From positions 32,001 to 96,000 of the forward strand of contig JAZDKB010000015.1 in NCBI GenBank assembly GCA_043803405.1: a stretch of DNA of 64,000 nucleotides, read 5' to 3'. The notes beneath the pieces were generated by a model. The model had not been told where the DNA came from and searched no databases. It worked only from the letters and a program-made list of their open reading frames with translations. The stretch comes from Spirochaetota bacterium (GTDB lineage Bacteria; Spirochaetota; UBA4802; JAFGDQ01). Position numbers and translations under genes: made by a program. Shown piece by piece: positions 10,570 through 15,889 of the stretch; the first letter of the stretch is position 1, and every line of letters starts with the position of its first letter.

Positions 10570-10682
10570 AAGTATATTACCTGCTATTGTATTCCCTTTG
10601 CAGAAAAGAATTAACAATCCCGATGAATGTATTAGTAGAAAAGCATTATTGCTTTATCACACACTCGCCGGTCGGGCTTAAA

Positions 10683-10839
10683 TGAACCTCCTGTCCACTT
10701 CTGACACCAGGACATCCTTGTCTGTCTGTCAGATGCAAACGGACCTCCGTGTATCAGCTATAAACGCGACTTCCTGTCGCATAGCCGGTATTAGTACATC
10801 CTGTACGTCACCGCACCCGACACTAAGGCATCCATGCCT
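10683..10839 (-). repeat. GGA-loop hairpin array A (six modules), candidate CsrB-like sRNA
   Basis: Minus strand AGGC-AUGGAU-GCCU, GUAC-AGGAU-GUAC, GCGAC-AGGAA-GUCGC, ACACGGAGGU, AGAC-AAGGAU-GUCC, UGGAC-AGGAG-GUUCA. Confidence 0.7.
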
Positions 10840-10870
10840 GTCGTCTCCCGGAATTTTTTTTACTAGCTGA

Positions 10871-11092
10871 AGAAAGTCTGTAGTCCGGGCAGTCGCAAGG
10901 GGAGTCTGGACAAAGAGCGGATCTACACTCTCTGTGACTTTGACAGACAATACGGATCATACCACGGTTACTAAAAGCGGAACCAGCAGCGCGTATTCAT
11001 CATTCAACACATTTGATATTGTCGGCGGCGGAGCAACGAGCGGAGAAACCAAATCGACTTATGTTGATGATGTGACTGTAGAAAGCCTTTAA
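10871..11092 (+). pseudogene. Start-less C-terminal fragment of a beta-rich (Ser/Thr-rich) protein
   Basis: Open frame GVWTKSGSTLSVTLTDNTDHTTVTKSGTSSAYSSFNTFDIVGGGATSGETKSTYVDDVTVESL*, bounded by TGA 10868-10870. No ATG or RBS. Confidence 0.5.
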
Positions 11093-11295
11093 TCGATGTC
11101 TTGAATAACCTGAATACTCAATAATCGGGTACAGGCTGGCGATATTCCCTCGTTTAAGCTTTCTCTTTTGCTGGGACGTAATCCTGCAGCGCATGTATTT
11201 AACGATCTTATTTTCTGCAAGCGCTGTAGCATTTATGTGATACAACGTCAGTTTAAGCCCGGTATGGCCCGCAATCCGGTCATGAGCTTTTTACC

Positions 11296-11324
11296 TTGAC
11301 ATTCGGCCTCTTAAGGGCTTTAAT
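11296..11324 (+). promoter_or_regulatory. sigma70-type promoter
   Basis: TTGACA-17 nt-TTTAAT upstream of the DUF4404-like gene. Confidence 0.55.
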
Positions 11325-11412
11325 TAAGTATATGAAGTCCGGAGCTGAAATTCATGTCGCAGTCCCTACATGGAAAACATGGAGTTAATCCGATTTGATG
11401 AGGAGATATTTT

Positions 11413-11745
11413 ATGATTAATGACACGATTTCGAATATAGAGAAGAGCATACGGAAATCTTCGACGCTCAATAAAAAGCAGAAGAAGGACCTTCATTATC
11501 AAATCACAAAGCTTAAAAAAGAAATATCGGTCCTGGCAAAGACCAATCCTGAACAGGCACAATCCATAGCCGGTTTTACACAGGTGTCGCTATATGAAGC
11601 CATTCGCGGTGAAAAAAATCCTGAACTCGCTAAGCTGTCATTCAACGGGCTTAAAGAATCGGTCCGCAGATTTGAAGTGACTCATCCACAGCTTGTGGCT
11701 GTTATTGACGGCATCATGGAACAATTAGCCGCTATGGGGATATGA
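11413..11745 (+). CDS. DUF4404-like small helical protein
   Basis: C-terminal ESVRRFEVTHPQLVAVIDGIMEQLAAMGI. Start moved to ATG 11413 behind the AGGAGA RBS. Confidence 0.75.
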   Translation: MINDTISNIEKSIRKSSTLNKKQKKDLHYQITKLKKEISVLAKTNPEQAQSIAGFTQVSLYEAIRGEKNPELAKLSFNGLKESVRRFEVTHPQLVAVIDGIMEQLAAMGI

Positions 11746-11893
11746 TAAAGCAGATTGCGGTGTCTGTCGATTTGTAAGAGACTGGTTTGAGGATAAATAG
11801 ATTGCTGAAAATTATCTGAAAAACCGGTATTTGTTGAAATATGTGTCAAAACATAGCCCAACCAGTGAACATATTATCATAAACTGTCAGATT

Positions 11894-11995
11894 GAAGCTT
11901 CAAGCTCACAGTTTGTAATCTCAAACTCCCATGCCGAAGCTTCAAGCTCTCAGTTTGTGATCTCGGACTCTCAGTTTCAAGCTTCGAATTTTAAG
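11894..11995. repeat. About 2.4 copies of a 42-bp tandem repeat
   Basis: Units begin at 11894, 11936 and 11978 (GAAGCTTCAAGCTCWCAGTTTGTRATCTC...). Confidence 0.7.
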
Positions 11996-12000
11996 TTGGG

Positions 12001-12022
12001 TAAAACGGACATCCTTGTCCTG
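12001..12022 (-). repeat. Solo GGA-loop hairpin module D
   Basis: Minus strand GGAC-AAGGAU-GUCC, flanked by the TAAAAC seen in the arrays. Confidence 0.55.
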
Positions 12023-12207
12023 CTAATTCCTTTGCGGCTAAAAAAGCCTTGAAATACTATACATCTTTTAAAAATAATTCATTTCTCCAAATAAAAAACA
12101 TTGCAAACTAAACCGGATTATTTCATCTTTTATCTTTTATTAATTATGGTATTAAAATCACATGATTAGTGATCCGGGAATGAATTTATAAATGTGAGAG
12201 GAAAGAT

Positions 12208-12729
12208 ATGGCTGTTACCAACATAAACAATGTGTTTCATTTAAAAGTTACGATTGAATGGGCAGGAAAGACAAGGGGCAATCCGTACAGAACCATAGCA
12301 ATACCGCAGAATGCTTCATTATATAATCTGGCAGAGGCTATAATTGATTCTTTCGATTTCGATTTTGACCATGCTTTTGGATTCTATAATAATTTAAAAG
12401 ACTGGTACAGGTCAATAGTCGGCTATGAACTCTTTACTGATATTGGAGAAGGAAGTAAATTTCCGGGCGTCAAAAAAACCAGATTATTAAAAGTCTTTAC
12501 GGAACTAAAAACTAAAATGCTGTTTATGTTCGATTACGGAGATGAATGGTGTTTTATTGTTCAACTGGTCAAAATAACGGATTTTGATAAAAATATCAAA
12601 TATCCTGTTATTACAGATTCTTTCGGCGATGCTCCGCCGCAGTACGATTATAACGACGAAGATTATGACGATGATGATTTTGATGACGACGAAATTGATT
12701 ATGACAATGAGAAAAAGCCGCAAAAATAA
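12208..12729 (+). CDS. pRiA4b ORF-3-like family protein with acidic tail
   Basis: RTIAIP...SLYNL..AI..SFDFDFDH, FDYGDEW, APPQY, followed by an Asp-rich tail. Confidence 0.8.
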   Translation: MAVTNINNVFHLKVTIEWAGKTRGNPYRTIAIPQNASLYNLAEAIIDSFDFDFDHAFGFYNNLKDWYRSIVGYELFTDIGEGSKFPGVKKTRLLKVFTELKTKMLFMFDYGDEWCFIVQLVKITDFDKNIKYPVITDSFGDAPPQYDYNDEDYDDDDFDDDEIDYDNEKKPQK

Positions 12730-12739
12730 AATATTGCTG

Positions 12740-12819
12740 CACCAGGGCATCCATGTCCGTCGGTCAGATGCAAACGCGCGTCCATGCGCTCATCTGACAC
12801 TAGGACATCCTGTCCGTCG
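12740..12819 (-). repeat. GGA-loop hairpin array B (three modules)
   Basis: Minus strand GGAC-AGGAU-GUCC, GCGC-AUGGAC-GCGC (inside GTCAGATG/CATCTGAC), GGAC-AUGGAU-GCCC. Shares CACCAGGRCATCCWTGTCYGTCKGTCAGATGCAAACG with 10705-10741. Confidence 0.75.
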
Positions 12820-13917
12820 CTAATAAACGAAAGCGGATTTAGTTATATGTATCATCTTTGTAATACTGCATTGTTCTCCTGCATCGTTTTTCATAACAAG
12901 TGAGAAATCATTAAACTCGCGATAGTAATTGAATTTAAACTGAAGATTCTTTTCCTCTGCCGGCAGGTCCCTTATAAGGCGGTCGTTAAAATATACTTGA
13001 ATTGTACGGTCCTTTGATTCATGCGGCAAAGATACATCAACATACAGAATGTTGTTGTATAATTCCGATTTTATCCGGCATTCAAGTTTTTTTGATATTA
13101 CATTCATTTTAAAATTCGATATCTCATGGCTTTTTAACACAAGGTATCGTTCAATAAGATGAAGATCGTCAAATCCGTAATTATTTCCAAGTATCGTGCT
13201 ATAAGCATATTTGTAGTTATCCCTGACGAGATTAAGCAGTTTTTTATTGAATAAACCATAAGGATATGCAAAAGAAATTACCTGTACCCCGAACATTGTT
13301 TCGAGAACTGTTTTCGAATGCGCAATTTCTTCCGTGATATTATCAATTGAAATACTATTCAAGTTCGGATGAGTAACCGTATGAGAACCGACCTCCCATC
13401 CTTCTTTTATCAGTTCACTTATCTGATCTTTGTTCATATACATTCTCGTCGGGTCGTTTTCTATCTTATCGGTTATTATAAACAGAATCCCTTTATATCC
13501 ATATTTTTTCATAATTGGATATGCATAATTATAGACGGACTCGTACCCGTCGTCAAAATTTATAAGCACAGGTTTTCTATTATTCCCGAGAATATTTCTT
13601 TCTGCCGGAGCCAGTACAACGGGAATATCCTTTGACAGGATGGTTTTGTAACCGGATGAATGCAGAAACTTTATCTGCTCTTCAAATTCAGCAGGAACAG
13701 TATTAATATAATTATCTTTTAATAACGGTGAAGGATTTATATGATGATAACAAATTACCGGAACATGTTCAAAATAGTGAATCTTTTTGGCCACCTGTTT
13801 GCCGCTGCAATTATGCAGAAGAAATACCGCAGAAAATATTCCTACGGACGAATATTTAAGAATCTTAACCGCAAAGACATGTACGGATATCTTAACCTTA
13901 TTTATCAGAGATTTCAT
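12820..13917 (-). CDS. Polysaccharide deacetylase (CE4/NodB), probable lipoprotein
   Basis: PVICYHHI, INFDDGY, GSHTVTHP, FAYPYG. N-terminal hydrophobic stretch ending in Cys. Confidence 0.9.
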   Translation of the reverse strand: MKSLINKVKISVHVFAVKILKYSSVGIFSAVFLLHNCSGKQVAKKIHYFEHVPVICYHHINPSPLLKDNYINTVPAEFEEQIKFLHSSGYKTILSKDIPVVLAPAERNILGNNRKPVLINFDDGYESVYNYAYPIMKKYGYKGILFIITDKIENDPTRMYMNKDQISELIKEGWEVGSHTVTHPNLNSISIDNITEEIAHSKTVLETMFGVQVISFAYPYGLFNKKLLNLVRDNYKYAYSTILGNNYGFDDLHLIERYLVLKSHEISNFKMNVISKKLECRIKSELYNNILYVDVSLPHESKDRTIQVYFNDRLIRDLPAEEKNLQFKFNYYREFNDFSLVMKNDAGEQCSITKMIHITKSAFVY

Positions 13918-14051
13918 TTTAATCCTCCTTCAAAATATTCATATCGCCTTGGGGCGTTATCATAACTAAACCCTCTTCCGTATTAGCGAAAGAAGGTCAG
14001 ATGTAACTCAGAATGCGAACTTTATATTCTGAAGAAGGGATGAATTGCTGA

Positions 14052-15536
14052 TTACAGTCTCAGCCGGATCCTGAATCTTTCAAGGACACCGGCGAAAAGC
14101 ACTACACTGAAAGCAAAGAATAACGATCGCCATAATCCCATGGAAGCACCCCAGCTATTGTAAAAGTCACTCCGGAAATAATACACATCCAGAAGCGTCA
14201 GTCCGTATATAAGCAGGTCGGACAGGATATATGCCATAAGGGCGTTGCGGCCAGCGTGTTCCATAATTTTTGTAACTTTATTTTCCTTTGAAACATCTGA
14301 AACAATATATATCAATACCCACGCCAATGCTGTAAATGCCGAACTCAGGAGGCCCCACGACGGAGTCGCACTAAGTTTGCTTATTATGAACATGGGATGC
14401 ATCTTGCTTAATGAATGCAGCATATAGCCTGCAGCGGCAAACCCTATGCCCAGCACGGCAGCGCGTGTTATGCGGCACCGGTGCGTTTTCTCATGTAAAT
14501 TTTCCGAGATCAGAATACCCAAAGCAGCGCCGGACAGGCAAATGGCAGAATGAGTTCCCAGGAAAGGACCAATGCTCACTATATTATTGATAAAGGAAAG
14601 GCCCTGGAACATGCCGGCTTTATCCGCGAAATACATACAGTATAATAATGCCGCAGCGCCAAGAATTCCCGCAGGCACTTTCTGAAAAAAAATATAAACA
14701 GCAGCGGACACAAAATACGCCCAGCCGATGAGCCCGATAATACCCCACCAGTGCGCCCTCATCTGCATAAGCCCGGCTCCGTTTTTACTGCTGTACGCAA
14801 AGGCCAGGAAAACAAGCAGCAGAACTCCCGTAATTCTGAAGATTTTAAGCACTTGACTCATCCAGGGGTAAGAACGCGGAAAGTCGATCCTGAACAGGAT
14901 AACTCCTGCTGCCATGAGAAAACTCCAGACGCGGTAATCAAAGAACCCGTTAAACCTGTCGATCGATTCTGCATTAACCATAAAAAAACCGATTAAAATA
15001 AGCAGAGCTGACCTCCTGGCTACATGCTCCCATATTTGCTGGACGCTCTCCCCGTTTTTAAGCCTCTTCCCAAGTGAGAAAGGCATAGACAGTCCCACTA
15101 TAAACAAAAATGCCGGGAATACCGCATCCGCTATGCTCATGCCGTCATGACCGTATTTTACATGCAGAAACATTTCCGGAGCACCTGCAATATTGTAAAC
15201 GTCATTCACAAATATCATTACAAGTATAACCAGGCCTCTGAGAATATCGACTGATCTCATCCGTTCAGAATTCATGACAGGATGTCCCTGCTTAGAGGAA
15301 TTATCATCAGGCTGCCCGGATTTATTTTCTTTTCTGTTTTTATTTAATATTTGATGCATTAAGTTTTTAATACTGATATGCCTGACTTTATCCAGGAAAA
15401 ACCGATTAAGCTGAGAATAATGTAATTGTAATGACTGAATCTTTTTATATAATTCCATTATTACAACTTTGATGTTATATTCGGGAACACTCATTTTTTT
15501 CAGCAAATTATTGTATTGCATAACATGTTTATTCAA
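14052..15536 (-). CDS. Multi-TM HGSNAT/DUF5009-like membrane acyltransferase; start uncertain (ATG 15275 likely)
   Basis: RMRSVDILRG..ILVMIFVN, ADAVFPAFLFIVG, WWGIIGLIGWAY, ISKLSATPSW, GRNALMAY. Confidence 0.82.
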   Translation of the reverse strand: MNKHVMQYNNLLKKMSVPEYNIKVVIMELYKKIQSLQLHYSQLNRFFLDKVRHISIKNLMHQILNKNRKENKSGQPDDNSSKQGHPVMNSERMRSVDILRGLVILVMIFVNDVYNIAGAPEMFLHVKYGHDGMSIADAVFPAFLFIVGLSMPFSLGKRLKNGESVQQIWEHVARRSALLILIGFFMVNAESIDRFNGFFDYRVWSFLMAAGVILFRIDFPRSYPWMSQVLKIFRITGVLLLVFLAFAYSSKNGAGLMQMRAHWWGIIGLIGWAYFVSAAVYIFFQKVPAGILGAAALLYCMYFADKAGMFQGLSFINNIVSIGPFLGTHSAICLSGAALGILISENLHEKTHRCRITRAAVLGIGFAAAGYMLHSLSKMHPMFIISKLSATPSWGLLSSAFTALAWVLIYIVSDVSKENKVTKIMEHAGRNALMAYILSDLLIYGLTLLDVYYFRSDFYNSWGASMGLWRSLFFAFSVVLFAGVLERFRIRLRL

Positions 15537-15669
15537 TTTGAACTAAATTTTAAACATCGGCGTTCTTATGACGTTCGTTTAATATATAAAAAATAATTCT
15601 AAACGGCAAATTTTATGGAAAAAAATAAAAAAAATTGTGAGATCGTAAAACGGGACAATAATAGTAGTG

Positions 15670-15757
15670 ACCGACATGATGTCGGTTATGCAGGCAAAGG
15701 CAGGATGCCGACAAGCCAGACATCCTGTCCTTCTTGGCATTTGCCACTTCCTGTGGC
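15670..15757. repeat. GGA-loop hairpin array C (mixed orientation)
   Basis: ACCGAC-ATGAT-GTCGGT and GGC-AGGAT-GCC read with the purine loop on plus. GAC-ATCCT-GTC and GCCAC-TTCCT-GTGGC carry GGA on minus. Confidence 0.65.
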
Positions 15758-15889
15758 GTTGCTGTACGCCGCTTCTTACTGGAATGAACTATACTAAAAG
15801 CAGTAAAATTAAAACTTCAGGATTTTTATAATTGGGATAAATGGCGCTCTTTAAAAACCTGATTAATAAATAGCAATTTTAGCAATACG

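Follow-up and report, generated by a model that had tools for sequence, protein, structure and literature searches.

We analysed a stretch of 64,000 nucleotides from the genome of a Spirochaetota bacterium (contig JAZDKB010000015.1, positions 32,001 to 96,000; hereafter the window), in which short hairpins carrying GGA in their loops are dispersed between positions 10683 and 15757. These hairpins are parts of a two-hairpin unit of 56-59 bp, mostly 57 bp, and we are highly confident that this unit is mobile. Whole units were gained or lost at single sites in genes (where they lie in frame), in hairpin repeats, in tRNA fragments and in the unit itself. In the clean cases, this occurred with no target duplication and no fixed target word. 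The unit is probably a non-autonomous mobile element of 56-59 bp that is moved in trans as a folded single strand. In what follows, G000 is the genome of the window, other G-numbers are other genomes, and L-numbers are individual loci.

Hairpins in the region 10683-15757 were read directly from the sequence. Fourteen were found, spread over four sites (A to D), whereas 200 dinucleotide shuffles gave 1.0 on average and never more than 5; this bears out the hairpin family described at these sites in an initial annotation of the window. The remaining 59 kb of the window contained 23 such hairpins. Across the whole genome, there were 264 single hairpins versus 103-109 in three shuffles, and 40 two-hairpin units versus 1-3 in three shuffles. 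The loop C-A(N)GGA(N)-G was present in 13 of the 14 hairpins, of which 12 are on the minus strand; the one at 15699-15709 is on the plus strand. The initial annotation had assigned a GGA loop to about 14 hairpins; this holds for these 13 and fails for the hairpin with the ACCGAC/GTCGGT stem (15670-15686), whose ATGAT loop gives GGA on neither strand. As it also stated, ACAAGGATGT occurs exactly in two modules, near 10711-10722 and 12007-12020. Finally, it had treated the hairpins as separate modules: they are real, but they pair up within the fixed 56-59-bp unit.

On the GGA strand, the unit comprises, in order, (C/T)GAC, hairpin 2, TA(G/A)T, an 8-10-nt arm, hairpin 1, a bulge of 3-6 nt and the complementary arm. 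Our alignment comprised 53 distinct units, drawn from G000 and its order: 36 were 57 bp long, 12 were 58 bp, three were 56 bp and two were 59 bp. Paired bases occupied 97.9% of 792 alignment cells and two-sided changes occurred in 13 of 15 pairs, in agreement with the earlier claim that the stems covary around the GGA loop; because the units were chosen by a descriptor that demands pairing, these figures lean towards the structure. All 106 loops fit A(N)GGA(N), mostly as pentaloops (5-nt AGGAN), with an invariant C-G closing pair, the loops being part of the selection. They also fit the ANGGAN hairpin motif of CsrA/RsmA (PMC3791407), as the initial annotation had recognized. Structure and loops are conserved while stems vary. 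In stems read on the GGA strand, G-T was found 10 times and A-C three times.

One covariation, involving the first base of the unit, was outside the selection descriptor. Of 87 contexts, 63 had C-G at bases 1 and 21, 22 had T-A, none had C-A or T-G, and two had other combinations; related copies inflate this count, yet the pair switches within both subtypes. Bases G2, A3, T19 and A20 of the unit are invariant. We infer that hairpin 2 extends to the first base through C1-G21, G2.A20 and A3-T19, with C4 bulged. As base 23 pairs with the last base, this helix of bases 1-21 would bring both ends of the unit together at one helical junction. The ends are not complementary to each other, so the unit has no terminal inverted repeats. 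The four bases immediately 3' of the unit were CGAC in only 12 of the 53 units, with 24 other words in the remainder, so the target is not a strict one.

Mobility was established by comparing filled and empty sites. In hrpA of G000, three different 57-bp units lie head to tail in an open frame of 1389 amino acids. The spacing at this site is 95 amino acids, versus 38 in G001, G005 and G006. These three were the empty ones among five relatives searched; one gave no match, and G002 was filled differently. Specifically, G002 carries at the same site a 114-bp composite consisting of the first unit with another nested inside, which argues against an assembly artefact. In a RAYT gene, one unit lies in frame, such that a motif spans 31 amino acids rather than the 12 found in 63 of the 65 sequences showing it (81 sequences examined). 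A fragment of an RHS pseudogene contains a 56-bp unit, and an empty paralog occurs on the same contig. Other palindromic repeats in relatives likewise harbour units; one such host repeat in G015 does so at about 25 loci. In addition, a 51-bp unit lies in frame in two leucyl-tRNA synthetase genes at metagenome loci.

The insertions into tRNA fragments were found in metagenomes. At L301, L325 and L363, a 5' fragment of a tRNA differs from the adjacent intact gene by a 51-bp unit, with no duplication. Among 118 distinct 5' flanks, eight matched a tRNA up to the junction, all in sense, as compared with none in shuffled flanks; one of the eight flanks matched its own ARAGORN call and some are of common origin, leaving about five events. 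A candidate empty paralog was found for 13 of 217 units, and beyond the three tRNA cases these were mostly tandem repeats. Together, hrpA, the RAYT gene, the RHS fragment, nesting and the tRNA fragments show directly what the initial annotation had called possible mobility.

Two ideas about target choice were dropped. A fixed GTCG/CGAC target with 4-bp duplication does not accord with the varied downstream words and the duplication-free tRNA pairs. Stems templated by the target had been suggested by an arm identical to a 9-mer of the RAYT target; the same arm occurs at unrelated sites.

Further features were observed at these loci. The RAYT gene (L004:1020-1727, G000:C18) has an early frameshift besides its 57-bp insertion; GTAG-type palindromes of its own flank it, and one of these is also present within the gene. 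A few bases past the RHS unit is a 41-bp GGA-hairpin insert of another subtype (L030, G000:C10:138170-138210). At L247, L252, L301, L325 and L363, the 5' fragments are duplicated from tRNA-Leu or tRNA-Arg and the unit splits the D-loop; in four of the five, an intact copy lies just downstream. At L345 and L365, the unit is in the T-loop of a tRNA 3' half. An ARAGORN search for tRNAs spanning the junction yielded four loci, none of them convincing.

Within the window, the units were on the minus strand unless stated otherwise. Site A (10671-10843) consists of a unit with a second nested in it, followed by a decayed third. The first unit (10728-10843; 58 bp without its guest) was read from the sequence, with a match to model R1 at 10815-10843. 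Its layout is CGAC, hairpin 2, TAGT, arm, split hairpin 1, GTTT bulge and complementary arm, and its 5' flank resembles a host repeat that bears a different unit in G001 (L017). The guest (10753-10810; 58 bp, R1 53.6 bits), of the TGAC/TAAT subtype, is inserted in the 5' stem of the first unit's hairpin 1. Such nesting recurs at G000:C9:161016 and in hrpA of G002. The decayed 57-bp unit (10671-10727; R1 37.2 bits) lies in head-to-tail tandem and its arms are partly unpaired. The six-hairpin array at site A is thus a pile-up of insertions and not a small RNA gene. A circularly permuted insert was considered for this site; G-T pairs explain the arms equally well. Adjoining site A is a short reading-frame remnant with no start (10880-11095), single-copy in the genome.

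Site B (11995-12020) is the 3' half of a unit, comprising hairpin 1, the GTTT bulge and a remnant of the arm. Among eight listed perfect modules of hairpin plus GTTT, it is the only one lacking the 5' half. It adjoins an unrelated tandem and palindromic repeat, and a related repeat in G001 lacks it. The repeat in the window (11881-11988) has tandem, partly palindromic periods of 36-42 bp and a longer relative in G001:C128. Site C contains a complete 57-bp unit (12763-12819; R1 65.2 bits), which starts at the base next to the stop codon (12820-12822) of a polysaccharide deacetylase gene. Beside it is a truncated second unit (12739-12762) of CGAC and hairpin 2, read from the sequence, with a weak R1 match at G000:C15:44713-44762. 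Site D is a decayed element of a second subfamily, B, on the plus strand (15651-15779), assigned by the flank and core motifs of 22 subfamily-B copies. It has a long basal inverted repeat like that of TwoAYGGAY, holds the non-GGA hairpin at 15670-15686 and the plus-strand hairpin at 15699-15709, and contains an inverted insert with two GGA hairpins (15703-15757, minus strand; hairpins 15743-15757 and 15718-15730). This insert was a descriptor match, with a weak R1 match (21.6 bits) and weak matches to Bacillaceae-1. The genes near the hairpins encode a nucleotidyltransferase-HEPN pair, a DUF4404 protein, a pRiA4b ORF-3-like protein and the polysaccharide deacetylase; one gave a weak DUF5009 match.

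We evaluated the distribution of the unit using a covariance model. This gave 32 matches in G000 (E<=0.1). Of the 61 genomes searched in the order, 42 had matches, and copy numbers ranged from 0 to 57; elsewhere in the phylum, matches were present in 15 of 121 genomes. When metagenomes were scanned with a pattern, at least 120 loci were obtained, and hairpin 2 was fully paired in 116 of 125 among the matches listed. The two-hairpin pattern had no match in viral contigs or in plasmids. Subfamily B is represented by 22 copies in G000, with long variable basal inverted repeats: in copies such as C3:114662-114786, the 25-30-bp basal arms differ between copies and stay almost perfectly complementary. 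At L029 (G000:C15:228300-233900), short genes of the toxin-antitoxin type (ParE, an addiction antitoxin and a nucleotidyltransferase) follow a type I restriction gene. Six repeats of 250-300 bp lie between these genes, with attC-like words, each repeat bearing units. An integron integrase is encoded in G000 at C9:269679, on a different contig.

Insertion sequences of the HUH type provide a precedent for movement of this kind. The IS200/IS605 and IS91 elements have hairpins by their ends, lack terminal inverted repeats and target duplication, and form tandem arrays; IS200/IS605 elements move by peel-and-paste of a single strand. The unit resembles them in inserting with no duplication (the three clean tRNA pairs; the RAYT and RHS cases are compatible but ambiguous). 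Unlike them, it lacks a fixed target tetranucleotide, and no HUH gene linked to it or co-occurring with it was found in the genomes and loci searched. A guide-tetranucleotide pairing in the manner of IS608 fitted at only two of three positions and was rejected. The unit also differs from a miniature inverted-repeat transposable element: its ends are not complementary and there is no target duplication in L301, L325 and L363.

In the mechanism that we tentatively propose, the GGA strand would fold into two abutting helices (bases 1-21 and 23 to the end), with the first and last bases at one junction, where an enzyme provided in trans would cut and join. The moving form would be single-stranded, DNA or RNA, probably a circular dumbbell, and would enter folded single-stranded targets. 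The A(N)GGA(N) loops would be protein docking sites that the element requires. CsrA would probably bind copies that happen to be transcribed in sense, and this would not be the reason for the four sites. The lack of terminal repeats and target duplication, the tandem arrays, the self-nesting, the folded targets and the meeting ends fit excision and insertion of such a dumbbell circle.

The search for an enzyme covered 129 flanking open reading frames (ORFs) out of 135; four window genes were annotated separately and two short ORFs were left out. They encode one IS200 TnpA, one GIY-YIG protein, one integrase core and about ten toxin-antitoxin proteins, the remainder being ordinary. In G019, two units lie close to IS200 tnpA, though not on the same side of it. 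Of 40 HUH transposase loci besides the interrupted RAYT gene, one had a strong and one a weak unit match. A link to a RAYT, IS200 or IS91 transposase was unsupported by flanking ORFs, co-occurrence or transposase loci. Similarly, the clustering around a RAYT or HUH gene that the initial annotation had named as a sign of a plain repeat family was not found among the flanking ORFs, transposase loci and genomes searched.

Several results weigh against movement of the unit as a folded single strand by an enzyme in trans. No such enzyme was found among the 129 ORFs, and clustering of 942 ORFs from 188 loci revealed no recurrent neighbour gene. Neither G026, a single contig with 19 units, nor G002, with 33 units, had a match to a Y1 or Y2 transposase at E<=1e-5; G017 and G155 had 12-14 Y1 matches and no unit. 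Folding energies showed no preference for either strand. The RAYT and RHS targets start with CGAC, so a 4-bp duplication is possible there, and the clean pairs with no duplication are 51-bp relatives from other organisms. The selection of the aligned units, mentioned above, counts on the same side. Finally, the tolerance of the loops is very close to that of CsrA, a fit for which a DNA enzyme would not necessarily account.

This CsrA-like tolerance and the sense-only tRNA insertions keep open a different reading, in which CsrA is a cofactor of mobility: by drawing the host dimer to both of its loops at an RNA or single-stranded DNA stage, the element would spread or be maintained, and any sponge effect would be a by-product. 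We consider it unlikely. The uniformity of the loops and their C-G closure would suit it, although the loops were part of the selection, and CsrA of Leptospira binds GGA hairpins, with FliW the likely antagonist (PMC8668096). As the initial annotation had proposed, the genome was searched for csrA and fliW, and both were present and adjacent, csrA (G000:C18:87008-87163) directly following fliW. Moreover, csrA was found in 65 of 71 genomes of the order and in all 16 tested carriers outside it; of the six genomes with no match, five were less than 90% complete, and all six had flagellin. However, as csrA is near-universal in the genomes searched, its co-occurrence with the unit is uninformative. 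In addition, the hrpA and RAYT-gene copies have the GGA strand in antisense, no reverse transcriptase or ligase linked to units was found in the flanking ORFs or by neighbour clustering, and none of the 46 tRNAs called in G000 contained an insertion. A more specific form of this idea regards the unit as the TwoAYGGAY class reduced to its minimal mobile core: a single-stranded dumbbell circle of 51-59 nt with a CsrA site at each tip that needs the host CsrA dimer to move. This form appears to us distinctly unlikely.

The initial annotation had interpreted the hairpins as host-selected, distributed CsrA sponge RNAs. The loop match, the covariation and the presence of csrA and fliW would agree with this, as would the six GGA hairpins on one strand at site A, and the idea is already in print for the closest families. 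One CsrA-related noncoding RNA is mentioned in L. biflexa (PMC8668096). Random orientation, which that annotation had itself named as refuting, was nevertheless what we observed: relative to the upstream gene, the GGA strand was sense at 35 of 70 loci, antisense at 34 and neither at one, using crude ORF calls and after dropping six duplicate loci of 76. In subfamily B, 12 of 20 copies were sense and eight antisense. The antisense copies in hrpA and the RAYT gene also count against a sponge. Tandem and nested insertion explains site A. The sites are not conserved within the genus, as in G001 and G006 no unit follows the homologous stop codon (site C) and no element lies upstream of the homologous gene (site D), although synteny breaks there. 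The model had no match in 19 of the 61 genomes of the order, csrA being almost always present. By consensus scan, promoter-like sites in the region did not rise above the chance level (21 versus 17.3), and on the minus strand nothing resembling a terminator followed site A. Any replichore bias was weak and placed the GGA strand on the C-rich strand, in 16 of 19 matches in G026 (11 of 14 after merging neighbours) and in 8 of 14 and 13 of 20 in G000. On this sequence evidence, a dedicated CsrA sponge is not supported, and we regard host-selected sponge RNAs as very unlikely.

That the units are an ordinary REP family maintained by a resident RAYT is scarcely credible. They are short, palindromic, dispersed and sometimes in frame, as REPs are (PMC3733652), and G000 has two Y1 transposase genes, but the palindromes flanking these genes are their own and differ from the unit, the unit inside the RAYT gene is an insertion, the other HUH transposase loci gave only the two matches described above, and the unit lacks a GTAG tag. 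Beside a short IS200-type tnpA at L003:1915-2115 (G000:C7), we observed a 21-bp tandem repeat and palindromic repeats.

We compared the unit with known structured RNAs and repeats. At the gathering score, no Rfam family matched the window. TwoAYGGAY (RF01731), listed in a table of PMC2864571, also has two adjacent hairpins with GGA loops; the unit agrees loosely with this two-hairpin definition, having A(N)GGA(N) loops. TwoAYGGAY likewise occurs in many copies with large variation between genomes, and Csr/Rsm binding and mobile-like spread have been proposed for it. In contrast to TwoAYGGAY, the unit has no basal stem, as its flanks vary and empty sites show that it ends at the arm; subfamily B does have a stem. 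Moreover, the unit is 57 bp with mostly 5-nt AGGAN loops, as compared with a model of 168 positions. RF01731 had no match in the window (gathering score 43 bits). In G000 it had three matches, at loci of the subfamily-B type elsewhere, one of them above the cut-off (a subfamily-B copy, 52.9 bits). The reverse complement of Bacillaceae-1 (RF01690) is similar in that the TCC strand of the unit has its layout of a bulged outer stem around one hairpin, followed by a second. Its best match in the window, on the strand opposite to the nested unit of site A, was at 10742-10807 (31.7 bits, E 0.0056), below the gathering cut-off of 35. Bacillaceae-1 is from another lineage and is not presented as an insertion element in the portion of PMC4333381 available to us.

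CsrB/CsrC and RsmY/RsmZ share with the unit GGA hairpin loops of the ANGGAN type and a cognate csrA in the genome. These small RNAs are discrete, conserved, independently transcribed genes. By contrast, the units are dispersed, polymorphic and in either orientation. The REP and RPE sequences with GTAG or CGTC tags are likewise short and structured, and they too occur within other palindromes and, in frame, within genes; the CGTC class also has no known transposase (PMC3733652). The unit differs in having a pair of hairpins whose stems vary around fixed GGA loops, and in its terminal word, (C/T)GAC, whose first base is internally paired. With respect to GTAG REPs and REPtrons, we found no GTAG tag and, in the loci searched, no RAYT gene flanked by the unit.

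The idea of CsrA sponges with mobility is not itself new, being in print for TwoAYGGAY and Bacillaceae-1. CsrA binding was proposed for both families in 2014-15 (PMC4333381). A 2026 preprint (bioRxiv 10.64898/2026.09.22.753630) describes an extended form of TwoAYGGAY, proposes that the elements act as multivalent sponges and have expanded in a mobile-like manner, and regards the link between mobility and regulation as unresolved. In the parts of that preprint available to us, mobility is inferred from copy number and arrangement, whereas here it rests on exact ends and on empty and filled sites. A literature search largely limited to open-access papers, and excluding supplementary files for the preprint and for PMC2864571, found no description of the unit, its ends or the tRNA insertions. 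What is new is the exact ends, the end-pairing that joins both termini and the sense-strand insertions in tRNA fragments. The unit is genuine and represents a new type within a class that is known but unexplained; it brings that class to a new lineage, and its ends and insertion behaviour are now defined.

Elements of the TwoAYGGAY class are widespread and unexplained, and the defined ends and end-to-end fold make direct tests possible. The element adds 17-57 in-frame residues to proteins such as HrpA and leucyl-tRNA synthetase. If the CsrA-dependent circle were true, this would be a mobile element with a global RNA regulator as cofactor, cut and joined at the junction of its ends. It would land in tRNA loops, in hairpin repeats and in itself, and would seed CsrA sites, perhaps even new sponge RNAs, in many bacterial lineages. 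Tandem and nested copies could be raw material for CsrB-like sponges in organisms where only FliW is established.

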